IMG/VR virus record: IMGVR_UViG_3300018080_000120
Reading direction: 5' to 3' (one strand)
Origin: a virus
Lineage: Duplodnaviria; Heunggongvirae; Uroviricota; Caudoviricetes
Length of the DNA: 64,000 nucleotides
Shown: in pieces, positions 1,847 through 15,025 of the stretch
Numbering within the stretch: the stretch's first letter is position 1
Layout of the letters: the number at the start of each line of letters is the position of its first letter
Made by a program: the position numbers and the translations under genes
The notes under the pieces: generated by a model
What the model was told of the DNA's origin: nothing
Seen by the model: only the letters and a program-made list of their open reading frames with translations
Databases searched by the model: none

Positions 1847-2503
1847 ATGGGAGAAATGCTATTTATCGGTACAGATTTAAGAGTTGCGAAAGACCCTGTT
1901 TTCATCCCCGGCGGAACCATTGAGGCCCCCAATCCGGACAAGAATCATGCCATGGTCACCCTGATGACCAACCGGAAGGTCGGAGATAAAGAGTATACAG
2001 ATGCCATCTCCGCCCATTTCTACGGAAAGTCCGCGTCCGTTGCTGCCAATTACCTGTGCAAGGGTAAACAGTGCAATCTTCGCGGTCGGCTTCAAGACTA
2101 TACCCAGGACACCGGCGTCGTAGACGCAAGTGGGAAGAAGATCATATACCGCAAGGTAGAGGTCATCGCCACGAAATTGGAACTGCTTGCAGACCCGATT
2201 TCCAAGATGGATGCAAACATCGCCGCCCTAAAACAGGCCGGTAGGCTCGTTGGTGACGTTACCGCCAAAGACATTCTGCCCCAGAAACACTCCATGGTCG
2301 AGTTCAATCCCGCAGCCGCCGCTTCCACAGGGAAGTATGCGCATGCGACAGTTTGGACGAAGGACCGGGGAACCTGGCAGGCCAATGGTCAGGCCGTTTC
2401 CACGCCCGCAGCCGGGGCTGACGAAGTCGCCCAGCTGAAGGCCCGCTTGGCCGCTCTGGAAGCCAATGGTGCCGCCGCTGGTAGTACCGCCTCGCCGTTC
2501 TAA
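1847..2503 (+). CDS. SSB-like OB-fold single-stranded DNA-binding protein (divergent, Ala/Gly-rich tail ending SPF)
   Basis: N-terminal pattern MLFIGT.LRVAKDP...TLMTNRK...YRKVEVIATKLELL resembles SSB OB fold; flexible A/G-rich C-tail; strong RBS ggaggt. Confidence 0.55.
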   Translation: MGEMLFIGTDLRVAKDPVFIPGGTIEAPNPDKNHAMVTLMTNRKVGDKEYTDAISAHFYGKSASVAANYLCKGKQCNLRGRLQDYTQDTGVVDASGKKIIYRKVEVIATKLELLADPISKMDANIAALKQAGRLVGDVTAKDILPQKHSMVEFNPAAAASTGKYAHATVWTKDRGTWQANGQAVSTPAAGADEVAQLKARLAALEANGAAAGSTASPF

Positions 2504-2544
2504 TACGGTCTGTGCTGAACCTTGGGGATACCCTGCCCATTATG

Positions 2545-2570
2545 GGTGGGGTTCCCCACCTTTTTTTGTT
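2545..2570 (+). terminator. rho-independent terminator
   Basis: GGTGGGG/CCCCACC stem followed by TTTTTTTGTTTTT directly after SSB-like gene stop. Confidence 0.6.
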
Positions 2571-2629
2571 TTTCTACCGAAAAATTTTACTATCTATCCC
2601 GTATTAATTTACTATATAGGAGTTAATCT

Positions 2630-3118
2630 ATGTTAAGTTCCGACTTTCCTTTTGCCGGATTTGTCTTAATTGTAGGATGCATTGTCTTTATTTGCTTGTG
2701 TCCTATTGTTGGAGTTCCGGTTATCTTGACCTGGCTGGTTTTGAACAATAAGGACCGGTTTCATGCGTTATTCTGTGAACCTAATGGCGGCGTTTCTATG
2801 GTTAGAACTTCTAAATTAAAGGAAATGGAGCAAGAATTGGAAGAAAAGGACGAATTTGTTGACCCCGTGGCGGAAAATTATAAGAAAGAGGTCGAAAGTC
2901 TGCTAAAACCGGGGTTTGATCAAAGCCCGGAGTGGCAAAAAGAGACGGAAGAGCTGCGAAAACAGCTAAAAGAAAGGCAAGAAAAGGCTAAAAAAGAAGA
3001 GAAGGAAGATTTAGAGCGCGAAAAGCGTGAAAAAGACGGATATACCGAAGAAATTAAGCAAAAAGTCGATGAAAAAGTCCAAAAAGTGCACTCTTCGTGG
3101 GTCTCCGGTTATTTTTAG
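2630..3118 (+). CDS. membrane-anchored protein with K/E-rich coiled-coil tail
   Basis: N-terminal hydrophobic segment then long lysine/glutamate-rich region. Confidence 0.55.
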   Translation: MLSSDFPFAGFVLIVGCIVFICLCPIVGVPVILTWLVLNNKDRFHALFCEPNGGVSMVRTSKLKEMEQELEEKDEFVDPVAENYKKEVESLLKPGFDQSPEWQKETEELRKQLKERQEKAKKEEKEDLEREKREKDGYTEEIKQKVDEKVQKVHSSWVSGYF

Positions 3119-3279
3119 TAGTGAAATTCCGATTTTTGAGCAATTTTGACGATTTTTTCAAGCAAAATACGATTTTTCGTCAAAAAACCGAATTCTTTTG
3201 AACAAAACGCTAATTTTTCGAAAATTTTGCTATTTTTAGCAAGCAAAATGACCATTTTTTCGATTTTGGGGGTAAAAAA
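3119..3279 (+). repeat. intergenic tandem array of ~7 degenerate ~20-22 bp units (GATTTTTY...CAAAAW)
   Basis: visible repeats: cgatttttgagcaattttgac / gattttttcaagcaaaatac / gatttttcgtcaaaaaacc / gaattcttttgaacaaaacgc / taatttttcgaaaattttgc / tatttttagcaagcaaaatgacc / attttttcgattttggg. Confidence 0.6.
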
Positions 3280-3281
3280 CC

Positions 3282-4034
3282 ATGGAAATATCAGCTCTGT
3301 CAAATAACCCATATGTTGTCAATATTTTTCCTGAACCAGAGAAAATTTCTGATATCAATGATGTGATCCAGAGCATTTTACCCTCGAACGACCTATTTGA
3401 CACAATCAGCGCCATTCAGAACGCTCAGATGGAACTTTTCCGCATTTCGGCGGGGGTAGATTATGGCAAAGCCAGTAGCCTGGATTATGTAAAATACCTG
3501 CAACAAGGAAATCCAAGAATAAAGGCTCTGGCCATGTCTATCGTTAGTCCGTGGGATAGTAATGACACCAAAATGTATAAACTGGAACAATGGGTCATTA
3601 ATAATATTGATTATGTATCTGACTGGGAAAATTATGGTCAGGATGAATACTGGGCTTACCCGACTCAAACTCTGGATCGCATGTCGGGGGATTGTGAAGA
3701 TGGCGCATTTTTACTCCATTCTCTTGCTCTTGCTGCTGGTGTTCCAGCTGAGAGGCTTCGAACTTATGGAGGTCTCGTTTTTAATCCCTATGGAACTCAA
3801 GCCGCTGGCCATGGTTGGACTTCATATCAAAGAGAATCAGATGATGAATGGATCGTAATGGACTGGTGTTATTGGCCAGAAGATTCTCCCGTCGGGGAAA
3901 GAACCCCTATGACGGAAGCTTTAAAATATATCGATGATTTCTTCTTCGTAAGTGCAAAAGAAGGAACAGTAGAAACTCCTTACTCAAATAGAGTGAGATA
4001 CGCAATGGGAGATCTCGTCAATATTTTCGCCTAA
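3282..4034 (+). CDS. transglutaminase-like cysteine protease/transglutaminase superfamily protein
   Basis: GDCEDGAFLLHSLALAAGVPAERLRTYGG (Cys core), GHGW (His), WIVMDW (Asp) = Cys-His-Asp triad of TGase-like fold. Confidence 0.7.
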   Translation: MEISALSNNPYVVNIFPEPEKISDINDVIQSILPSNDLFDTISAIQNAQMELFRISAGVDYGKASSLDYVKYLQQGNPRIKALAMSIVSPWDSNDTKMYKLEQWVINNIDYVSDWENYGQDEYWAYPTQTLDRMSGDCEDGAFLLHSLALAAGVPAERLRTYGGLVFNPYGTQAAGHGWTSYQRESDDEWIVMDWCYWPEDSPVGERTPMTEALKYIDDFFFVSAKEGTVETPYSNRVRYAMGDLVNIFA

Positions 4035-4264
4035 AATCGAAAAAGTGTAACAGTTTAGGGAATGTTCAGCCACCCCCCTATAAAATGGCGACCTCGATAT
4101 AACCCGGTAAAATTTGGTCTCCCCGGCTGGCAAAACCACATAATATATAATAATATCATAAACATACAAAATCAGGTATTTTACCATGAAAATAATACTT
4201 ACATTATGGCTGGTATTTACATTATACCATATAATATTAATATATATACATTAGGAGATAAACC

Positions 4265-4390
4265 ATGAAAGATAAAACAAGGGAAAATATAACCATAGGA
4301 TTTATTATTGGTACGGCTATGGTTATAATATTACTATATTTCTTTGGCGATATGGTGGTAGATTGGTTGTTCCACAAACTAATGTGCTGA
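4265..4390 (+). CDS. small hydrophobic protein (41 aa)
   Basis: RBS ttaggagataaacc-ATG; one TM segment; below ORF-track size cutoff. Confidence 0.35.
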   Translation: MKDKTRENITIGFIIGTAMVIILLYFFGDMVVDWLFHKLMC

Positions 4391-4649
4391 ACACCATATA
4401 AATGTAAAATACCCTATAGTTTATAGGAGGATAGAATGATCTGGAAATTATTCGATTATACTTGCATTTGCGTCATGGACCGATATATCGACGGCTGGTA
4501 TTGTTTGGTTGTCGATTATTGGCTTTGTTACATGTTTTATTGATCTATGGGAGAATAGACCATGAAAAAAGTAATGTTGTATGTTTGTATATATGTGGTT
4601 TCGTTGATGGCTTGCACGGCTTTATTTATATGGTTGGATATACTATGAT

Positions 4650-5133
4650 TTATATTTATATATATATGCCGATCAAATTTTCAGTTCCGCAAAAAATTTT
4701 CGATCGATAAGTTTGGTCGGCCGATCGATGAGAATGTGTGGTCGATCGATACCCTGACGCATACATATATATAAGTAAATATATCATAATAAAATACAAT
4801 ATCAATAACTTAAACCATTACAAACCATACTCAAACCCTACATTTCTAATACTACATATCAAATTGTCCAATCATATCTGGCGTTTATCCTATTACACTT
4901 CTATATATACCCCGTATTCTTTTACTCTACTCTATTATATAAAATAAGTAAATAAATCAAGTAGTTGAATAGGTCAAAAATGGTGTAAAAATACCATAAT
5001 AATATCAACTATTTGGCAGACGATAAATATACCATAAATAAGGCGAAAATACCGAAAAATAGGCATACATATATAAATATATATTAATAGATATTTAAAC
5101 TATTGCCATTATTATGTAAAAGGAGATAACTTT
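4650..5133. promoter_or_regulatory. AT-rich non-coding region with iterons (candidate origin/regulatory region)
   Basis: three CGATCGAT copies at ~4702, ~4723, ~4743 (~21 bp spacing); AAATACCATAA-like repeats at ~4985-5060; no convincing ORF. Confidence 0.4.
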
Positions 5134-5301
5134 ATGACAGAATGGTTGAATAGATTAACGATTCAATTAGCTGGAATCTACGACTATCTCGTGAGCTTAC
5201 CAAAGGAAATATATCACTGGTTTATATCTCTAAGCCCATTGGCTCAGATAGGATTAGTATTATTAATTATTGCTGCCATCATAATAATGCTTGACGAATA
5301 G
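5134..5301 (+). CDS. small membrane protein (55 aa)
   Basis: RBS aaaggagataac; hydrophobic C-terminal half; in-frame 168 nt. Confidence 0.4.
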   Translation: MTEWLNRLTIQLAGIYDYLVSLPKEIYHWFISLSPLAQIGLVLLIIAAIIIMLDE

Positions 5302-5335
5302 TCACTAATAAATAAAAAGGAGGTTTTATTCTATT

Positions 5336-5788
5336 ATGAAATTATTTAGTATTATACTTTGTATAAGTTTACTTTACATGATGATTCACCCCGCGGCGAT
5401 CGCAGCAGAGGGGAGCACCATTTTCTGTTTCGAATGTAGTTATCCATGTTGGAGTGATGCAAAAGGCAATCATGCCACTTCCAAAAAATATCCTATGGAA
5501 TTCAAATTCGTATGGAAACTGGGAGAACGTAATGCCACAATGATAGGAAACGTTGGAACAGCTGAAGTGGCTGCCATACAAAACGCTTGTGGTATCACGT
5601 TTGTTGAGATAACAAATACTGGGAATGTCACAGCAACCACGATTAATCTCGAACAAATAAAAGAAATTAAAAAGAATGGCATCTTACAATATGTAATAAC
5701 TGAATCAGTTCACAGCCGTAACACTATAATGCCAGATGGATATCAAACATGGTGCCAATATTACGGAACTTGTGTTATTAAAAGATAA
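5336..5788 (+). CDS. secreted Cys-containing protein with signal peptide
   Basis: N-terminal MKLFSIILCISLLYMMIHPAAIAA signal; RBS aaaaggagg. Confidence 0.55.
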   Translation: MKLFSIILCISLLYMMIHPAAIAAEGSTIFCFECSYPCWSDAKGNHATSKKYPMEFKFVWKLGERNATMIGNVGTAEVAAIQNACGITFVEITNTGNVTATTINLEQIKEIKKNGILQYVITESVHSRNTIMPDGYQTWCQYYGTCVIKR

Positions 5789-5888
5789 GAATGCAAAAAA
5801 ACATAGGTATATTAATAATAGTGATATTTATTATCCTATGGATAATTGAAGGATAAACTATTGCCATATTTGGAGAAAAGAGGAAAAT

Positions 5889-6217: not shown

Positions 6218-6255
6218 TTTACCAGAAAACATTTTACCCCGCGGCGATCCGCGGG
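6218..6255 (+). promoter_or_regulatory. family-1 upstream element E1 (TTTACCAGAAAACATTTTACC box + CCCCGCGGCGATCCGCGGG hairpin)
   Basis: perfect 7-bp GC stem, CGAT loop, ends 11 nt before ATG 6267 within SD. Confidence 0.7.
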
Positions 6256-6717: not shown

Positions 6718-7170
6718 ATGAGAAATGAACAGGGCTGGATAGTTATAGCCGAAACAAAAGATATTCCAGATGGCAACTATCTTCTGTCGTGGTGGTTTGA
6801 TGGCACTGGAGCGTATCCGGTACAGATTAAGGATGGTAAGGTGGCGCCTTATACCAGCTTTCGGGAGCCACAACCACTTTCTGTATTTAACAATTATCAC
6901 CTGCTTGAAGATACAAAAGAGCGAACCGTGTTCTATGAGGTAAACTACGACAGTGCAACGAATGTAGGACCTGCCACAGCCTACGGATCCACTCACCAAA
7001 TAGGATACTATAGAACATTACTCAATGCGAAGAAAGCGGCGGAAAAACATCGTGGGGGTGAGAAGATAGAGTGGGCTCCAAGTGAGGATGCTCTGACATG
7101 TAGATATTATATCAAAGAACAGTCCCGCAATGTTAAATATGAAATAATAGCACATTTGTTTGATGATTAA
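6718..7170 (+). CDS. hypothetical protein (N-terminus duplicated as remnant at 9285)
   Basis: 150 aa; first ~17 aa nearly identical to 9285..9395 remnant. Confidence 0.6.
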   Translation: MRNEQGWIVIAETKDIPDGNYLLSWWFDGTGAYPVQIKDGKVAPYTSFREPQPLSVFNNYHLLEDTKERTVFYEVNYDSATNVGPATAYGSTHQIGYYRTLLNAKKAAEKHRGGEKIEWAPSEDALTCRYYIKEQSRNVKYEIIAHLFDD

Positions 7171-7186
7171 TTTTAAGGAGAATAAT

Positions 7187-7384
7187 ATGTTAGAAACATT
7201 GACCGGAAAGAGAAGATTCCGTAAAGGATTCTTTGGTAAGTTAATACTTCAAGTAGAAGTCACAGCAGAATTCGATACGGAGATATGTCCAGGAATAGGG
7301 GATATCGAGAGAAGAGAAGTTACTGGATATCGGGATGCAACTATTGAAGACTTAACCGTACATGATAATGTAAAAGGAGAATAA
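7187..7384 (+). CDS. hypothetical small protein
   Basis: RBS ttaaggagaataat-ATG; 65 aa. Confidence 0.5.
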   Translation: MLETLTGKRRFRKGFFGKLILQVEVTAEFDTEICPGIGDIERREVTGYRDATIEDLTVHDNVKGE

Positions 7385-7385
7385 A

Positions 7386-7505
7386 ATGCCAGAAGCATTA
7401 AAACAAATGATGTGGTGTGTATTTGGAATACTTGCAATTTATGTAGGCATATATCTTTTGTTTAGTATTCCTGTTATAGTATATAAACTTATAGAACGTT
7501 TATAA
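7386..7505 (+). CDS. small membrane protein (39 aa)
   Basis: RBS aaaaggagaataaa-ATG; single TM. Confidence 0.35.
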   Translation: MPEALKQMMWCVFGILAIYVGIYLLFSIPVIVYKLIERL

Positions 7506-7510
7506 GAGCT

Positions 7511-7546
7511 TTTACCAGAAAACATTTTACCCCGCGGCGATCCGCG
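7511..7546 (+). promoter_or_regulatory. family-1 upstream element E3 (TTTACCAGAAAACATTTTACCCCGCGGCGATCCGCG)
   Basis: second copy of extended box + hairpin, ends 12 nt before ATG 7559. Confidence 0.7.
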
Positions 7547-7558
7547 TTAGAGGTGATA

Positions 7559-7882
7559 ATGAAAGAACCAGAAATAATAAAAGAGTATCAAGTCAGAACT
7601 ATGCGAAAATGGGTAGAGTTAGGGCCAAATCGCAGATGTCCAAGATACTGGCGAGATATAATCTGCTCAAAATCAAGGAGATGCGTCTGCCTTAGAGATG
7701 TTGAAACCCCATGGTGCTGGGGATGTGCGGATTGTGAAAGATTTTTCCCAAAGGTAAGCCGTGGTATGAAGGAAAACAGTGATAACTTTCCTTGTCCTTG
7801 TGACTTATATGGCAAAGAGCAAGTTGTAAAAATGGCAAAAAAGTATATCAGAGGATGGGAAGAACAAAGTTATGAGCAATAG
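7559..7882 (+). CDS. Cys-rich small protein
   Basis: multiple Cys pairs (CPRYW...CVCLRDVETPWCWGCADC). Confidence 0.55.
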   Translation: MKEPEIIKEYQVRTMRKWVELGPNRRCPRYWRDIICSKSRRCVCLRDVETPWCWGCADCERFFPKVSRGMKENSDNFPCPCDLYGKEQVVKMAKKYIRGWEEQSYEQ

Positions 7883-7890
7883 CCTGATTA

Positions 7891-7911
7891 TTCACCCGCA
7901 GGCGATCCGCG
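7891..7911 (+). promoter_or_regulatory. family-1 upstream element E4 (TTCACCCGCAGGCGATCCGCG)
   Basis: degenerate hairpin 14 nt before ATG 7926. Confidence 0.6.
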
Positions 7912-7925
7912 TTAAGGAGGTGAGT

Positions 7926-8582
7926 ATGTATAAATATATAGTATTACTAATCAGTATGTTATGTCTGGTAGCATGTGCTCCTTCTTATGAAGAATTGTGT
8001 GAGAAACGTACTAAGATAGAAACTGAATTAGTGCTCTGGGCTAATTGTAGGAGTAGTTTCGCTCAGACATCTAATATGATACAGAAAATCCGCGAACTGG
8101 ATAAAATCACTGCTGAAATAGAGAAACACTATCCAGCCAAATGCCAGCAGGAATTAGAAGAGAATAAACCAAAAGTGGTAAAAACCTATGACAGTTTTAT
8201 AATAACTTCTGATGGATATGTTATCGAGGCAGATAAGAGAACATATTTCTACGAAGGATATGAGTATGGAAGGCGCTGTAGCTGTCTATTCGACGATCTA
8301 AGTGTATTATATGAGGACTACGACCTAAACGCCGTCCACGAGCTGGTCGCAACATATCCAAGGTGCTTCACACCTGTGAAAGCATGGACTCTTGGAGTAC
8401 TGTGTAATAAGCCAGAGAAACTGCCTGAAGGATATACATACTCAGGAATGCATAAAATAAGATTTAGCGGGTCATATAAAAAATACTATGCACATGCAAA
8501 ACAACTATTCATGTTCCAGACTTATCAAGAACCAAAACCCAAATATTTAGATATAGGAGAAGACTACGAGTTGGTAGAATAG
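7926..8582 (+). CDS. lipoprotein
   Basis: MYKYIVLLISMLCLVAC lipobox signal peptide. Confidence 0.55.
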   Translation: MYKYIVLLISMLCLVACAPSYEELCEKRTKIETELVLWANCRSSFAQTSNMIQKIRELDKITAEIEKHYPAKCQQELEENKPKVVKTYDSFIITSDGYVIEADKRTYFYEGYEYGRRCSCLFDDLSVLYEDYDLNAVHELVATYPRCFTPVKAWTLGVLCNKPEKLPEGYTYSGMHKIRFSGSYKKYYAHAKQLFMFQTYQEPKPKYLDIGEDYELVE

Positions 8583-8627
8583 TATATAACTATATATACC
8601 TAACTATTTTAGGCATTTAACACTCTA
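8581..8627 (+). repeat. family-2 upstream element A (AGTATATAACTATATATACCTAACTATTTT...)
   Basis: shares AAGTATRTATTACTAAYTATTT box with copies at 8891 and 9388. Confidence 0.5.
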
Positions 8628-8639
8628 TTGGAGGGCCAT

Positions 8640-8861
8640 ATGATTACACTGAAAGAAGGGGACATTTGCCCAGAATGTGAGAGGGGGCATTTAAAGCCAG
8701 CTGTGAAGGATATAAACTTTACATGTAAGGGTAAAGTGTTCTTTTCAGAAGAAAATATGGCCATACTACGCTGTGATCTATGTGACTATAAAACCTTTAG
8801 GGATAGGGCAAAAAGCGAAGAAATCGAAAAGGCCCTTATAGCGTTTCGAGAAAAGATGTAA
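8640..8861 (+). CDS. zinc-ribbon small protein
   Basis: CPECERG...CDLCDY; SD ggaggg 5 nt upstream. Confidence 0.55.
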   Translation: MITLKEGDICPECERGHLKPAVKDINFTCKGKVFFSEENMAILRCDLCDYKTFRDRAKSEEIEKALIAFREKM

Positions 8862-8890
8862 AAGGGCATAAATTGTATCTATGTATGTAT

Positions 8891-8951
8891 AAGTATATAT
8901 TACTAACTATTTGCTGAGCCATATCAGTGGTTTAGCAGTGATCAAGGAGGG
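8891..8951 (+). repeat. family-2 upstream element B (AAGTATATATTACTAACTATTT ... GTTTAGCAGTGATCAAGGAGGG)
   Basis: two conserved boxes; ends 5 nt before ATG 8957. Confidence 0.6.
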
Positions 8952-8956
8952 TCAGA

Positions 8957-9250
8957 ATGAAAGATACCAATTTCACGGTAGAAATAGATGTAGGTGATGG
9001 CAGAACCTTACACTTCAATACCGATCAGTTGAAGATAGACATCTATCAATTATCTGGTAAAGAACGGGTAAAGGCAATGCATATATTCGGTGTTGCAGAA
9101 GGGATTATACCAAGAGATCAGCCAGAACAGAAAGTTATGACACTTAAAGCTGAAGCTGTTTGTAAGCCTGATAGTGGTGTTGATGTACTTAAGAGAGGGC
9201 CTCATGGTAATAAGAATAGTGTTATAACCTTTAGTTCAAGTGAAATGTAA
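8957..9250 (+). CDS. hypothetical protein
   Basis: 97-aa ORF downstream of family-2 element. Confidence 0.5.
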   Translation: MKDTNFTVEIDVGDGRTLHFNTDQLKIDIYQLSGKERVKAMHIFGVAEGIIPRDQPEQKVMTLKAEAVCKPDSGVDVLKRGPHGNKNSVITFSSSEM

Positions 9251-9272
9251 TTCACCCGCGACCGATCCACAC
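9251..9272 (+). promoter_or_regulatory. family-1 upstream element E5, degenerate (TTCACCCGCGACCGATCCACAC)
   Basis: left arm conserved, right arm decayed; precedes gene remnant. Confidence 0.5.
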
Positions 9273-9284
9273 TAGGAGACAAAT

Positions 9285-9395
9285 ATGAGGAACGAACAAG
9301 GCTGGATAGTTATAGCCAAAACAGAAAATATACCACCAGTTGATTGCTTTCTACTGGGTAATGAAATCAACGAGTTCGTCAATCATGGTATATAA
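9285..9395 (+). pseudogene. truncated paralog (36 codons) of 6718..7170
   Basis: MRNEQGWIVIAKTENIP... matches MRNEQGWIVIAETKDIP...; DNA near-identical for ~50 nt then diverges to early stop. Confidence 0.5.
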
Positions 9396-9453
9396 GTATG
9401 TATTACTAATATTTTATAACGCCTTTTCGGGGCGTTAGCGGTGATCCAGGAGG
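9388..9453 (+). repeat. family-2 upstream element C (GGTATATAAGTATGTATTACTAATATTTT ... hairpin AACGCC-TTTTCGG-GGCGTT ... GCGTTAGCGGTGATCCAGGAGG)
   Basis: 6-bp perfect hairpin at ~9418-9436 embedded between the two boxes. Confidence 0.6.
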
Positions 9454-9458
9454 TCATT

Positions 9459-9668
9459 ATGGCAAGACAGCAATTTTTCTATTTATTAGAAATTGATGAT
9501 GAAGTTGAAAATGAGGTATTTTACAACACAAAACAAATAGTAGATCACATAGAAGAACAAGGACTGGTCAATGGAGATGAAGATGTACAGGTTTTGAAAG
9601 TAAAGCTCCATAAAGTTATTAAGCCTATTATAGAGAGAAAGATTACTATACCAGAGGATACAGAATAA
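9459..9668 (+). CDS. hypothetical acidic small protein
   Basis: ATG 6 nt after ccaggagg SD (ORF-track GTG 9441 also possible). Confidence 0.5.
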   Translation: MARQQFFYLLEIDDEVENEVFYNTKQIVDHIEEQGLVNGDEDVQVLKVKLHKVIKPIIERKITIPEDTE

Positions 9669-9676
9669 CCCGATAA

Positions 9677-9697
9677 TTCACCCACGACCGATTCGTG
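9677..9697 (+). promoter_or_regulatory. family-1 upstream element E6, compensatory variant (TTCACCCACGACCGATTCGTG)
   Basis: stem CACGA/TCGTG preserved by paired substitutions; 14 nt before ATG 9712. Confidence 0.65.
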
Positions 9698-9711
9698 AGA
9701 AAGAGGAGGAA

Positions 9712-9897
9712 ATGAAGTTATACTTTTTATTCAGAGTCAGTTTGCTAAGCACGACCAAGGATATTTGTAGGAAAGAGATGATGAAACCGGTGAGTGCCAG
9801 CACAGAGCAGAATGCAGTGAATAAACTCTTGCGTTACTTCGATTTTAATCACGAAGGCTGGAAAGTTGAAGAGATAGAAAACTGTACAATATCATAG
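9712..9897 (+). CDS. hypothetical small protein
   Basis: 61-aa ORF. Confidence 0.45.
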   Translation: MKLYFLFRVSLLSTTKDICRKEMMKPVSASTEQNAVNKLLRYFDFNHEGWKVEEIENCTIS

Positions 9898-9918
9898 CGT
9901 TAGCAGTGATCAAGGGGG
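9897..9918 (+). repeat. family-2 upstream element D (GCGTTAGCAGTGATCAAGGGGG)
   Basis: second box only; 7 nt before GTG 9926. Confidence 0.55.
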
Positions 9919-9925
9919 TAAGAAC

Positions 9926-10192
9926 GTGAACATTAAGAAAATAGGTAAATTTATCGAAATAGACCCAACACATTTGTTCTATAAAAAGTATACCATATGG
10001 AGTAATGGAGGCATGTTAGTAGATCGTCGTAAACCTACAAGGGTACAATCATATTTAGATGAATTGCCTCTTCTCTGGGAAGTACTTTTGAAAGCTGCAT
10101 ACTATGTAATTACATGGCCTATTGCAGCAGTTATTAAGTTCGTGTGGTACTTACTTACTGGTATATTTGTTCCTTCTAGGTTTTTAAGGTAG
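9926..10192 (+). CDS. hypothetical protein with C-terminal TM segment (GTG start)
   Basis: 88-aa ORF; hydrophobic C-terminus. Confidence 0.45.
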   Translation: MNIKKIGKFIEIDPTHLFYKKYTIWSNGGMLVDRRKPTRVQSYLDELPLLWEVLLKAAYYVITWPIAAVIKFVWYLLTGIFVPSRFLR

Positions 10193-10212
10193 GAAACAGG
10201 ACAACCTGATTA

Positions 10213-10234
10213 TTCACCCGCGCGAGGATTCGCG
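10213..10234 (+). promoter_or_regulatory. family-1 upstream element E7, compensatory variant (TTCACCCGCGCGAGGATTCGCG)
   Basis: stem CGCGA/TCGCG, loop GGAT. Confidence 0.65.
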
Positions 10235-10252
10235 AGAAAGGGAGGAAGGAGA

Positions 10253-10423
10253 ATGTTTAGACTATTCAAAAAAGACCCTCTAAAAAGGAAGCTAAGAAAG
10301 GCTAAAAGGGCAAAGAAGCAGGAAAGTAAAGCATATTGGAAAGCTGCCGAGGCAAGATGGAAAGAAGGACTTAGAATCGATGAATACATGGAGATGTGTA
10401 TACCGGCTGGAACTATGATTTAA
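10253..10423 (+). CDS. small basic protein (56 aa)
   Basis: strong SD gggaggaaggaga; follows E7; below ORF-track cutoff. Confidence 0.45.
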   Translation: MFRLFKKDPLKRKLRKAKRAKKQESKAYWKAAEARWKEGLRIDEYMEMCIPAGTMI

Positions 10424-10478
10424 ATCCACTACATAAAGCGTAATTCGCCCTGTGGTAACCAACAAGGAGGAGCAGATA

Positions 10479-10793
10479 ATGACAAAATCAGAAATTAACA
10501 GAGTAATGGAGAAAGTCAAACTTAATCCGATGCCTATTGATGAAAAGACAGGAAAACAGAATCCTTGGATATGCCCAAAATGTCAGGCTGAAGGCAAAGC
10601 AAAAGAAGAAATTCTGGATGAGAAAACTGAGTCTGCGGACTTCATGCTCGGAAATGAATCACTGTCGTACATAGAAATGGCGTGTGAATGTGGCTACGAG
10701 TGGTATATTATCTTGGAGTCAAAAGGCTGGACGGATGATGATGTTGCAGCGGAAGATATAATAAGCAAATTCATCCATGAAAAAGAAGAGTAA
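10479..10793 (+). CDS. zinc-ribbon protein
   Basis: CPKCQ...CECG; SD caaggagg. Confidence 0.55.
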   Translation: MTKSEINRVMEKVKLNPMPIDEKTGKQNPWICPKCQAEGKAKEEILDEKTESADFMLGNESLSYIEMACECGYEWYIILESKGWTDDDVAAEDIISKFIHEKEE

Positions 10794-10839
10794 GCAACAT
10801 TATTCATTCGTAGCTATCTGCGAAAAAGGAGGAAAAGAT

Positions 10840-11112
10840 ATGTCTGAGGAGAAAACAAGAGTAATTGACGGAGTCGAATATGAAGAAATGGGCCCTTACT
10901 GTGATATATGTGGGGCTCATATGGGTGAATACTATGATCCTAAGAAGGGATCTTTTATTAACCCGCACAATTATGATGAATACAGCAGCAATGTTTGCCC
11001 AGAATGCGGCCAGGAATATTCTTACGAAGAGGGTGATATGCCTATACTTGATGATGAAATGAAGGCTCTTATACTGGCGCATAACAAAGCGAAGCTCAAA
11101 GGAAAAGAGTAG
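10840..11112 (+). CDS. zinc-ribbon protein
   Basis: CDICG...CPECG; SD aaaggagg. Confidence 0.55.
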   Translation: MSEEKTRVIDGVEYEEMGPYCDICGAHMGEYYDPKKGSFINPHNYDEYSSNVCPECGQEYSYEEGDMPILDDEMKALILAHNKAKLKGKE

Positions 11113-11120
11113 GACAAATC

Positions 11121-11140
11121 TTTACCCGCGGCGATCCGCG
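11121..11140 (+). promoter_or_regulatory. family-1 upstream element E8 (TTTACCCGCGGCGATCCGCG)
   Basis: 13 nt before ATG 11154. Confidence 0.65.
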
Positions 11141-11153
11141 TTAGGAGGATAGA

Positions 11154-11498
11154 ATGATAAATCTTAAAGACTACATTTTAGACAGGATAGCGATTTCGTG
11201 CACTAACTTTCAACCATCGCTAACAGCAATGCGGCTTTTCGGAAGCTCGACCAGCTACGATAATATAGAATATGTATATATCTATAAAGATAACAAACGT
11301 GTGGGCAGCCTTAAGCTGTACTTCGAAGTGGATACTTTTAAAATAACCTTGGATAAAGGCCAGTTAGGTATGTTTAAAGGCAAATCGTATACTGGGCAGT
11401 ACGCCGATTTAACAGCTCTTGATGGAGTGGCCCAATGGCTTATTAAAGAAGCGGTTTCTGAGAACATCGACAAGGCCAAGCTCAAAGAAAAGAGATAA
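11154..11498 (+). CDS. hypothetical protein
   Basis: 114-aa ORF. Confidence 0.55.
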   Translation: MINLKDYILDRIAISCTNFQPSLTAMRLFGSSTSYDNIEYVYIYKDNKRVGSLKLYFEVDTFKITLDKGQLGMFKGKSYTGQYADLTALDGVAQWLIKEAVSENIDKAKLKEKR

Positions 11499-11540
11499 AC
11501 TCTTTATCTACTCAGCGATCCTCATAAAGGTGGTGAAACA

Positions 11541-11738
11541 ATGAACTTCGAAAAAATGAGAGAAACCTGTCCATCACATATTACAGAATATCATGGACAC
11601 TGGCATAAATGTAGATCTCGAATACATCGGGAGACTGCAAGAGGCCAGGTACTCTTTGATGTCTGTAGTAAGAAAAACTGTCCTTTTTTACATGTGTTAA
11701 GGCATGTGTTGGGATTTGTGAAGGAAAAAAGAGGATGA
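11541..11738 (+). CDS. His/Cys-containing small protein
   Basis: 65-aa ORF, SD aaaggtggtg. Confidence 0.45.
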   Translation: MNFEKMRETCPSHITEYHGHWHKCRSRIHRETARGQVLFDVCSKKNCPFLHVLRHVLGFVKEKRG

Positions 11739-11914
11739 TCTCAAAAGAACAATTATTACATATTGTGAGTGTTTGTCCAGATAAGATGCCATCAGAAAAA
11801 GAACTCAAAGATCTGTATGAGTGTCATCTTAGACAATGTAAACATCCAAAGGAAGAAGATGAGTACTGGCAAAGAGTAACGAATAGAGTTAATGATATAA
11901 TAAGAAAAAAGTAG
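11735..11914 (+). CDS. small protein (59 aa)
   Basis: ATGA overlap with upstream; SD aaaagagg. Confidence 0.4.
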   Translation: MISKEQLLHIVSVCPDKMPSEKELKDLYECHLRQCKHPKEEDEYWQRVTNRVNDIIRKK

Positions 11915-11916
11915 TT

Positions 11917-11953
11917 TTTACCAGAAAACGTTTTACCCCGCGGCGATCCGCGG
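11917..11953 (+). promoter_or_regulatory. family-1 upstream element E9 (TTTACCAGAAAACGTTTTACCCCGCGGCGATCCGCGG)
   Basis: third copy of extended box + perfect hairpin. Confidence 0.7.
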
Positions 11954-11966
11954 AGAGGAGGAGAGA

Positions 11967-12146
11967 ATGCTAGTAAAAATCAATTTGAAAGATGGGGAAG
12001 AACCTATACACGGATCATCATGGGATATCGATGAGCCTAGTGGCATGATAATACTGAGAGGAAAAACGCCAGCACCTGATGAGAAAGTATATGAATACAA
12101 TGTACCTATAGATAATATAGTGTATATCCAAGAATTGGAAGAATAA
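11967..12146 (+). CDS. small protein (59 aa)
   Basis: SD gaggaggagaga. Confidence 0.45.
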   Translation: MLVKINLKDGEEPIHGSSWDIDEPSGMIILRGKTPAPDEKVYEYNVPIDNIVYIQELEE

Positions 12147-14272: not shown

Positions 14273-14583
14273 AAAAACGAGAATGGATGTACGTCCAGCA
14301 GCCAGCCGAATATGAAATGAGCTGTGACAAATGTGGTGGGGTTAATATCACATGGTCAGAATTCGAAGGTCATATCTGGTGTTACGACTGTGAAATAGAC
14401 ACACCAGGAAATGCTGGTGTCTTTGATGGCCCAATCCCTCTGGCCACAGCCGCTTTGCTCGGAATGAACTTCTCCATAGTCTACCTTGAAACTGGCAAGG
14501 TCGAAACACCGGTCGTAGAGCATGGCCGAATCGTGTGGAAGGAGATAGACTTAAAGAAAGGGAAAACAAATGGTCAGACTTAA
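14263..14583 (+). CDS. zinc-ribbon protein
   Basis: CDKCGG...CYDCE. Confidence 0.5.
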   Translation: MEMKKREWMYVQQPAEYEMSCDKCGGVNITWSEFEGHIWCYDCEIDTPGNAGVFDGPIPLATAALLGMNFSIVYLETGKVETPVVEHGRIVWKEIDLKKGKTNGQT

Positions 14584-15025
14584 ATATAAAAATACCTTCA
14601 TATATCTTACAAATGCAGAGCATATAAGCTTGCTGGCTCGATTCAATATTCTAAATTTTAAACCTCAGCACTATGTTTCTGGATGGCTAATAAACGAAAC
14701 GCCGTGCGTTTTGTGTAAAAAATACCGCAAGTATGATGGCGACATTCAGATTTGTCGTGAATGCCCATTTGATGGGATATTCGAAAAAGACAATTATGCT
14801 GTCTTCGGATGCATAACGGTTATGAAGGGCATTTTGAAAAAACTAGTATGTGGATTTAGTCCCTTCGATATTAGCGTAGAATCTATCAGCTTCCGCGAAT
14901 TTGAAAAAGATAAATGTACAAAGATTTTGGAGTTACTTACCAACTTTCTTAAAAGCGGTGTGAAAATTCCATTTTGGAGAAAAATTCCATTTCGGATAGA
15001 CCAAAAACCACAAAAAGGGAGATAA
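14570..15025 (+). CDS. Cys-rich hypothetical protein
   Basis: 151-aa ORF; CVLCKK...CRECP. Confidence 0.5.
   Translation: MVRLKYKNTFIYLTNAEHISLLARFNILNFKPQHYVSGWLINETPCVLCKKYRKYDGDIQICRECPFDGIFEKDNYAVFGCITVMKGILKKLVCGFSPFDISVESISFREFEKDKCTKILELLTNFLKSGVKIPFWRKIPFRIDQKPQKGR

Follow-up and report, generated by a model that had tools for sequence, protein, structure and literature searches.

What does a spacer packed with degenerate repeats do between two genes of an uncultivated phage? The locus lies in IMGVR_UViG_3300018080_000120, a Caudoviricetes genome of which we analyzed one 64,000-nt stretch (the window). It occupies the 163 nt (3119–3281) from the stop codon at 3116–3118 of a gene for a 162-aa protein to the ATG at 3282 of a gene for a transglutaminase-like protease. 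A sequence-only reading had described seven head-to-tail 20-bp units there and proposed a multimeric protein-binding site or a stack of UP elements. The array is real, and what is most regular about it is the placement of its A/T tracts on the double helix. We are confident that the spacer is a selectively kept piece of intrinsically curved DNA acting at the DNA level. As an explanation of the whole locus, we favor on balance a selected curved element with an architectural role for the protease-like gene over a set of sequence-specific iterons.

Curvature from phased A-tracts is textbook material; clear-cut examples in which selection acts only on the shape of DNA are scarce. This one comes from a clade without a cultured relative, and its pattern may also be written into the codon choice of a neighboring gene.

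One tract per helical turn

The core array (3130–3281, no strand assigned) is built of seven degenerate units of 19–22 bp, the first starting at 3130. They lie head-to-tail at 3130–3149, 3150–3169, 3170–3188, 3189–3209, 3210–3229, 3230–3251 and 3252–3273, with the rough consensus CGATTTTT-N3-4-(G)CAAAA(T)-N1-2. Mean pairwise identity among units is 0.61 (range 0.41–0.82), against 0.47 ± 0.02 in shuffled arrays (maximum 0.52). A clean CAAAA, previously ascribed to every unit, is found in only four of the seven. Self-match autocorrelation has peaks at a lag of 20 (z 2.8) and again at 40/41 (z 4.2/4.1). Set against the best lag of each of 2000 dinucleotide shuffles, they rank above the 99th percentile and below the 99.9th. 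Judged as a sequence repeat, the array is weak. Tandem Repeats Finder, one of the checks that had been proposed, does return two partial rows, of period 10 and period 20, but their scores of 35 and 47 fall under the default threshold of 50.

The sharper regularity is helical. Sixteen A4-6/T4-6 tracts occur one per turn at a spacing of 10.1–10.2 bp (about 10.15 bp), with T-tracts and A-tracts alternating. This alternation accounts for the 20-bp "unit" and for the many inverted repeats detected in the array; the 20-bp period thus holds for the seven units, but tract phasing at 10.15 bp is the tighter order. The AA/TT Fourier power of the array is 7.6–8.0 at 10.0–10.25 bp, whereas 1000 shuffles gave a maximum of 2.76, so the periodicity goes beyond AT-richness. 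When the same tracts and linkers were kept and only their order was changed, the array ranked in the top 0.25% (P = 0.0025; P values under this block-shuffle null span 0.0025 to 0.037). Tract centers are in phase (Rayleigh R 0.78–0.86, n = 17–27).

The array stands out from the rest of the window. In a 150-bp scan for 10-bp periodicity the array came first (7.34), followed by the 3' end of the upstream coding sequence (CDS) (4.09), and the next value was 2.8. The rest of the 64 kb has no 10–11 bp periodicity, its profile being flat at about 0.23. Copies of the unit motif show no excess outside the array, and no second copy of the element occurs in the 64 kb or in the 10 kb farther upstream (at least 74 kb in all). 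TpA steps number 4 of 143, as expected of A-tract DNA, which is rigid, and in contrast with an unwinding element. An ENA assembly contig of the same phage (L007, 6834–6917) stops 84 nt into the array, which may break short-read assemblies.

Predicted curvature

Three wedge models place the array among the most curved DNA of the window. We implemented the Bolshoy-Trifonov, De Santis and AA-wedge dinucleotide models and tested the implementation against classical controls. It returned curved DNA for phased A-tracts and straight DNA for out-of-phase tracts, and the Hagerman controls were reproduced, with (A4T4CG)n curved and (T4A4CG)n straight. Among 140-bp stretches of the window, the array ranks first in predicted curvature in two models and in the top 0.03% in the third. 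Its predicted end-to-end/contour ratio of 0.38–0.46 compares with a window mean of 0.94 (standard deviation about 0.045) and with 0.63–0.70 for the runner-up, and its predicted curvature is close to that of ideal synthetic constructs. The models sum the axis deflection to 245–290 degrees in a nearly planar, slightly left-handed arc. The array thus combines A or T runs of at least 4 nt, in phase at 10–11 bp over several turns, with wedge-model curvature far over background. As a natural sequence of ~150 bp with a predicted bend of about 270 degrees, it could serve as a DNA-mechanics reagent.

The second most curved stretch outside the array neighborhood is coding. It lies at 14926–15025, the 3' end of an open reading frame (ORF; 14570–15025), and holds a direct repeat, GAAAA(A)TTCCATTT(T/C)GGA, that encodes KIPFWRKIPFR; its likeness to the first array unit looks coincidental. 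A motif common to the array and this curved coding DNA around 14960, GTGAAAWTTCC, was rejected, being in coding DNA only and in unremarkable counts.

Selection on tracts and spacing

Comparison of lineages separates the tracts from the DNA between them. We compared the window with L003 (duplicate L011) and L004, whose proteases are 88% and 81% identical to that of the window; L001, L002, L006 and L007 are exact copies of the locus from metagenomes. Further lineages were found neither with three protein queries (the protease, the 162-aa protein and the product of an SSB-like gene farther upstream) nor in IMG/VR scans, and a metagenome DNA-pattern scan gave only the L003 duplicate. BLAST against 50,697 phage records and plasmids returned no nucleotide match for the window, and tblastn with its RNA polymerase subunit returned none among the phage records.

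All seven units are present in three of three lineages, so the copy number, which the sequence-only reading had suggested checking for variation among relatives, is constant. AA/TT power is 7.1–7.6 at 10.0–10.25 bp across them, and the predicted end-to-end/contour ratio is 0.41–0.48. Spacer identity between lineages is 0.75–0.78, with about 23% of positions differing. These differences are unevenly placed: column identity is 86–96% in tracts and 64–69% in linkers (Fisher P = 4e-4), and the tracts also stand apart from A/T positions within the linkers (P = 0.015). Linker identity approximates that of four-fold synonymous sites in the flanking genes (0.54–0.82). Throughout ~160 bp of slippage-prone homopolymer runs, there is a single indel, of 1 nt. 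The tracts and the distances between them are thus what selection maintains, whereas the linker bases drift as neutral sites do. The internal dyad TTTCGAAA, singled out earlier, is not conserved in the relatives.

These data bear directly on a neutral origin, in which tandem duplication left behind an aged minisatellite of 20/40 bp whose period happens to equal two helical turns and whose curvature is a by-product. Growth by duplication is suggested by the autocorrelation, strongest at 40/41 bp, together with a 37-nt pair that recurs at 81 bp. Mostly near-perfect 20-bp T4-N6-A4 arrays in 45 IMG/VR contigs also indicate that such arrays arise readily in AT-rich viral DNA. Yet tract conservation is well over that of linkers and synonymous sites, copy number is constant with almost no indel despite the divergence of the spacer, phase coherence beats the reordered-block nulls, and codon choice in the neighboring CDS adds periodicity in two lineages. 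A neutral relic is therefore improbable. We also rejected import of the curvature with the protease gene from cellular DNA, as the nearest cellular context (L005) lacks such a signal.

A probable extension into the upstream gene

The array fills the spacer, as had been described, but phasing probably sets in ~150 nt before it, within the upstream CDS. The Lys/Glu-rich 3' end of that 162-aa CDS has, from about 2959 onward, ~11 A-tracts spaced 9–12 bp or about 30 bp apart, a probable extension (2959–3118, no strand assigned) with ~10.2-bp phasing that brings the total to about 27 tracts. Part of this periodicity is owed to the protein sequence. Even so, the window (P <= 0.003) and L003 (last 180 nt, P = 0.04; last 300 nt, <1/1000) are more periodic here than their synonymous-codon shuffles; L004 is not. 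At 10.15–10.2 bp, CDS tail and spacer share phase in all three lineages; over the combined 312 bp (2970–3281), power at this period is 10.0–10.7 in the window and 7.2–7.8 in L003 and L004. An L004 insertion (1308–1328) lies outside the array, just past the stop codon of the 162-aa gene, and is flanked by AGTG direct repeats. Its 21 bp amount to two helical turns, so the phase between CDS tail and array is hardly shifted. We call the extension probable rather than proven because the agreement in phase is sensitive to the precise period and the lineages share part of their history.

With the CDS tail included, the predicted deflection rises to 470–540 degrees, about 1.3–1.5 turns. Spacer and codon-embedded tail could then form a ~320-bp, 10.15-bp-phased, left-handed DNA "spool". 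This would be the clade's single dedicated shape-defined wrapping site, where an architectural protein of phage or host would assemble to initiate replication or packaging or to organize the genome. We regard this elaboration as distinctly unlikely.

A possible site for a wrapping protein

The main rival to a transcriptional role is a unique cis site wrapped by protein: an origin, a pac site, a partition or centromere-like site or a genome-organizing site, on which a dimeric protein of phage or host would sit every 20 bp, coating or wrapping the curved DNA. Several features suit it. Each 20-bp unit pairs a T-tract with an A-tract around a pseudo-dyad, and inverted repeats abound; CAAAAT and CCGAATT are invariant beyond the tracts. 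The element is single-copy, an SSB-like gene lies two genes upstream, a period below 10.5 bp suits left-handed wrapping, and the geometry is like that of λ ori and plasmid parC. If the array were such a site, it would mark an origin or organizing center, features that are poorly understood in jumbo phages.

Sequence specificity and gene content argue the other way. Identity among units is only 61%, and what selection maintains is the tracts and not a specific core. Our overview covered 91 window proteins with the first 25 families listed. Among these and the neighbors of the array, we found no Rep or other initiator, ParA, ParB, ParM, TubZ, terminase or integrase. DnaA boxes are absent from 2400–5400 and IHF sites from the array, whose paucity of TpA steps would make it hard to melt. 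GC skew shows no change, and no similar plasmid or cultured phage was found. We consider a unique wrapping site unlikely.

Two specific proposals of the sequence-only reading are not supported. Replication iterons are near-identical 17–22-bp repeats with a sequence-specific core, and here conservation among degenerate units is limited to the A/T tracts; DnaA boxes and a TpA-rich element are likewise missing, as is an initiator among the neighbors and families listed. A partition centromere of the parC, parS or tubC kind would be expected beside partition genes, and the neighbors are instead a transmembrane/coiled-coil protein and a transglutaminase-like protease. The former, once suggested as the binder of the array, is a poor DNA-binding candidate, its soluble part being acidic (pI 5.2). 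An archaeal-histone positioning sequence was rejected because an SLT lytic transglycosylase, and a peptide deformylase that is encoded just upstream of the window, point to a bacterial host.

Coding and RNA-level explanations

The spacer does not appear to encode a protein. A 65-aa ORF on the minus strand and a 53-aa ORF on the plus strand are both interrupted by stops in L003 and L004, and we rejected a coding function on these grounds.

A function in RNA was weighed as an A/U-rich intercistronic leader, either a ribosome stand-by site or S1 enhancer, or a repressor target with a hairpin at 3224–3249 as operator. No terminator was found between the 162-aa gene and the protease-like gene, which makes cotranscription of the spacer with the former probable. 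The Shine-Dalgarno-like GGGGG (3269–3273, plus strand; 8 nt 5' of the ATG, invariant in three of three lineages) sits inside the last unit. The hairpin corresponds to an inverted repeat, ATTTTGCY-N10-RGCAAAAT (no strand assigned), which RNAalifold pairs at alignment columns 106–131; each of the three lineages retains it, L004 with one compensatory change from T-A to C-G, and it could be a hairpin or a dyad operator. The fold energy of the spacer as a whole, however, equals that of shuffles (z 0.14), and a search of Rfam gave no match at E <= 1. The RNAalifold consensus gains no net support from covariation (term +0.46, one compensatory pair in 46), and we rejected a structured cis-regulatory RNA. 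A 10.15-nt period is moreover the repeat of the double helix, without rationale in single-stranded RNA, and the phasing runs on into the coding region. These results make an RNA-level leader decidedly improbable. Together with the helical phasing, the preserved tracts and the lack of a conserved ORF, they agree with the sequence-only proposal of a periodic architectural or multimeric docking array.

A possible role in transcription

How might curved DNA act at this position? Curved segments are typical upstream of promoters and at sites of nucleoid-associated proteins. A-tract clusters have been described genome-wide, as has a concentration of A-tract periodicity in intergenic DNA (PMC516772, PMC3940949). 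The array directly adjoins the Shine-Dalgarno sequence and ATG of the protease-like gene, and we propose that it would be an architectural cis-element for this gene immediately 3'. The curved segment would present one face with a row of narrow minor grooves and, in supercoiled phage DNA, might lie at a loop apex or be wrapped on a protein surface. It could act as an upstream curved activator or UP-like element, wrapping or recruiting RNA polymerase to a weak promoter inside the array or at its end. Alternatively, it could nucleate a nucleoid or phage protein that reads curvature or the minor groove and gates expression. The UP-element stack and the nucleoid-protein nucleation site of the sequence-only reading are accordingly both plausible but unproven. 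That the curved element serves transcription specifically, at the downstream protease-like gene, is a serious possibility that stops a little short of probable. If it does control that gene, the array offers a handle on regulation in a phage with unrecognized promoters.

The transcription signals around the array fit this proposal in part. A strong intrinsic terminator (2544–2570, plus strand; a GC hairpin followed by T7) follows the SSB-like gene and is kept in L003 (4250–4290) and L004 (717–755), which makes the 162-aa gene, the array and the protease-like gene a transcription unit of their own. A weak sigma-70-like promoter candidate, TTGACG-16-TACGAT (3146–3173, plus strand; 9/12 matches), lies within the array, and L004 has TTGATA-18-GATTAT at the same aligned place.

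Several points weigh against the proposal. L003 has no counterpart of the candidate promoter, the number of sigma-70-like sites equals shuffle expectation, and no positionally conserved promoter was found across the three lineages. Since an RNA polymerase subunit is among the gene products of the phage, its promoters may be unrecognizable; the phage probably transcribes with a polymerase of its own. The array extends to the Shine-Dalgarno sequence and would have its strongest part 3' of the candidate promoter, a layout that a simple upstream activator does not fit. A single copy in at least 74 kb would suit an origin, packaging site or organizing center equally well. The bend is a curvature predicted by wedge models and depends on their parameters, a caveat that leaves the parameter-free Fourier result unaffected. 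Finally, the lineages are three and fairly close, and the conservation statistics therefore rest on few independent events.

Genomic neighborhood

Both flanking genes lie on the plus strand. The upstream one (2630–3118) encodes the 162-aa protein, in which an N-terminal transmembrane segment precedes an acidic helical tail rich in Lys and Glu. It has no Pfam family and only marginal PHROG matches (E about 0.001–0.006), and its homologs are confined to the same clade. The downstream gene (3282–4034) encodes the 250-aa transglutaminase-like cysteine protease (Transglut_core / Peptidase_C93, Pfam E 1.3e-9 and 1.8e-7), whose close homologs belong to the phage clade only, followed by cellular proteins at about 57% identity.

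Nearly all genes of the window, which is part of an uncultivated jumbo-phage-like genome, lie on the plus strand. Products encoded in the window include an RNA polymerase beta-like subunit, RtcB, a CCA-adding enzyme, RNA ligase, NAD salvage enzymes, a helicase and HNH endonucleases. A 63-aa ORF 3 kb upstream of the array (64–255) has a pI of 11.5 and a CxxC motif, and is possibly a small zinc-ribbon nucleic-acid-binding protein. The exact copy L006 contains a 5-kb island (7000–12000) of GC 0.45–0.51, against 0.38–0.43, that spans a 238-aa gene through the SSB-like gene. In window terms, it runs from ~2.2 kb upstream of the first base to 2800, leaving the array just past its edge.

Other genes of the window carry their own upstream motifs. 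A cassette, TTTACC-CCGCGG-CGAT-CCGCGG, with a 6-bp GC hairpin stands directly 5' of the Shine-Dalgarno sequence of many small plus-strand genes. Near-exact copies lie at 6233–6254, 7526–7547 and 11932–11953 (three found, zero expected), and looser ones just upstream of the ATGs at 6718, 9712, 11154, 12190 and 12643. We take it to resemble the PeSL (promoter-early stem-loop) cassettes of T4-like phages. The motif TATAAGTATRTATTACTAA recurs in intergenic regions at 8888–8906 and 9391–9409 and more weakly at 5072 and 8585 (four matches, 0.06 expected); it is a candidate early promoter of the phage and is missing from the array. We rejected a general promoter motif of the phage within the array, since early-type motifs and the hairpin cassette of other genes are missing there.

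Right after the protease gene comes a largely non-coding region of GC 0.32 (4100–5130), conserved in L003 (5760–7190). It contains a 21-bp repeat (CGATCGATAAG...) at 4701–4751, clustered GATC sites and IHF-consensus matches at 4800, 4955 and 5003, and several metagenome contigs end within it. As a candidate origin, genome end or early promoter cluster, this region would be preferable to the array. The conserved CTATTGCCAT lies about 25–30 nt upstream of three start codons (window about 5100–5110 and 5860–5870; L003 about 7165) and could be a promoter or translational operator. Just 3' of the protease gene, TAACAGTTTAGGGRATGTTCAGCCACCCC is conserved as well (window 4045–4080, L003 5898–5930), with no Rfam match.

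Comparison with known systems

The nearest parallels are curved promoter-upstream elements. Phased A-tract DNA of this kind is known from Bacillus phage SP82 Alu156, Clostridium perfringens plc and the UP element of rrnB P1. The array shares with them 4–6-nt A/T tracts at the helical period, an intergenic position immediately 5' of a gene, a scarcity of TpA steps and a strong predicted bend, and its succession of T-tract and A-tract resembles the two halves of the UP-element consensus. It differs in being longer, with 16 tracts (about 27 with the CDS tail) against typically 3–6, and in reaching the Shine-Dalgarno sequence and entering the upstream CDS. Its period is 10.15 bp, whereas ~11 bp is typical of bacterial genomes, and unlike such elements it is singular in a genome otherwise without 10–11 bp periodicity. 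In number and density of phased A-tracts and in its near-circular predicted arc, the array is comparable to the bend of trypanosomatid kinetoplast minicircles. Kinetoplast tracts, however, all run in one direction where those of the array alternate, and the biological system differs.

Two wrapped or bent assemblies offer further parallels. The four iterons of λ ori are ~19-bp dyad-symmetric O-protein sites at ~20-bp spacing, intrinsically bent. The array has their ~20-bp period, pseudo-dyad units, a predicted static bend and a phage genome as its setting, but its units, so loosely alike, come without a conserved sequence-specific core, an initiator gene or an adjacent TpA-rich unwinding element. 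In parC of R1 and pSK41 and in tubC, repeats of 10–12 or 20 bp are wrapped by ParR or TubR, and the DNA is wound into a superhelix. Like these, the array consists of helically phased repeats filling a spacer upstream of genes; unlike them, its units are degenerate and no partition NTPase or adaptor genes accompany it among the neighbors or families listed.

Reading of DNA shape by an architectural protein has a phage precedent. Protein p6 of phi29 recognizes periodic bendability and not base sequence, and controls both replication and transcription (PMC10899789). Its sites differ from the array in having a 12/24-bp period, a right-handed wrap and a place at genome ends, where the array has a 10.15-bp period, a slightly left-handed arc and an internal position.

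Related arrays recur in other viral genomes. The exact six-tract pattern (T4-N6-A4 three times) matches the 45 IMG/VR contigs (L012–L056; for example L056, 9024–9165), most of which carry near-perfect 20-bp tandem repeats in AT-rich phage or giant-virus DNA. They share with the present array an intergenic position and T4-N6-A4 alternation at 10 bp, and the octamer AAGCAAAA is common to it and the L018 family. They are mostly young, with 3–7 near-perfect copies, and the present array is old, degenerate and held in phase. In the L018 family (13 contigs; L018, 5330–5420), the array lies between tRNA-His/Lys/Gln genes and a tyrosine integrase gene and adjoins CCAACACGAAAT direct repeats, a setting that looks like an attP region. 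This family prompts the reading of our array as an attP-like recombination site whose phased bends would aid intasome assembly. The window has no tRNA, however; neither an integrase, among the neighbors or families listed, nor arm-type repeats were found near the array, and the gene content is that of a lytic jumbo phage, so that an attP-like site is barely credible. With 45 contigs and more than one functional context, phased T/A arrays are a recurrent device or by-product in viral genomes.

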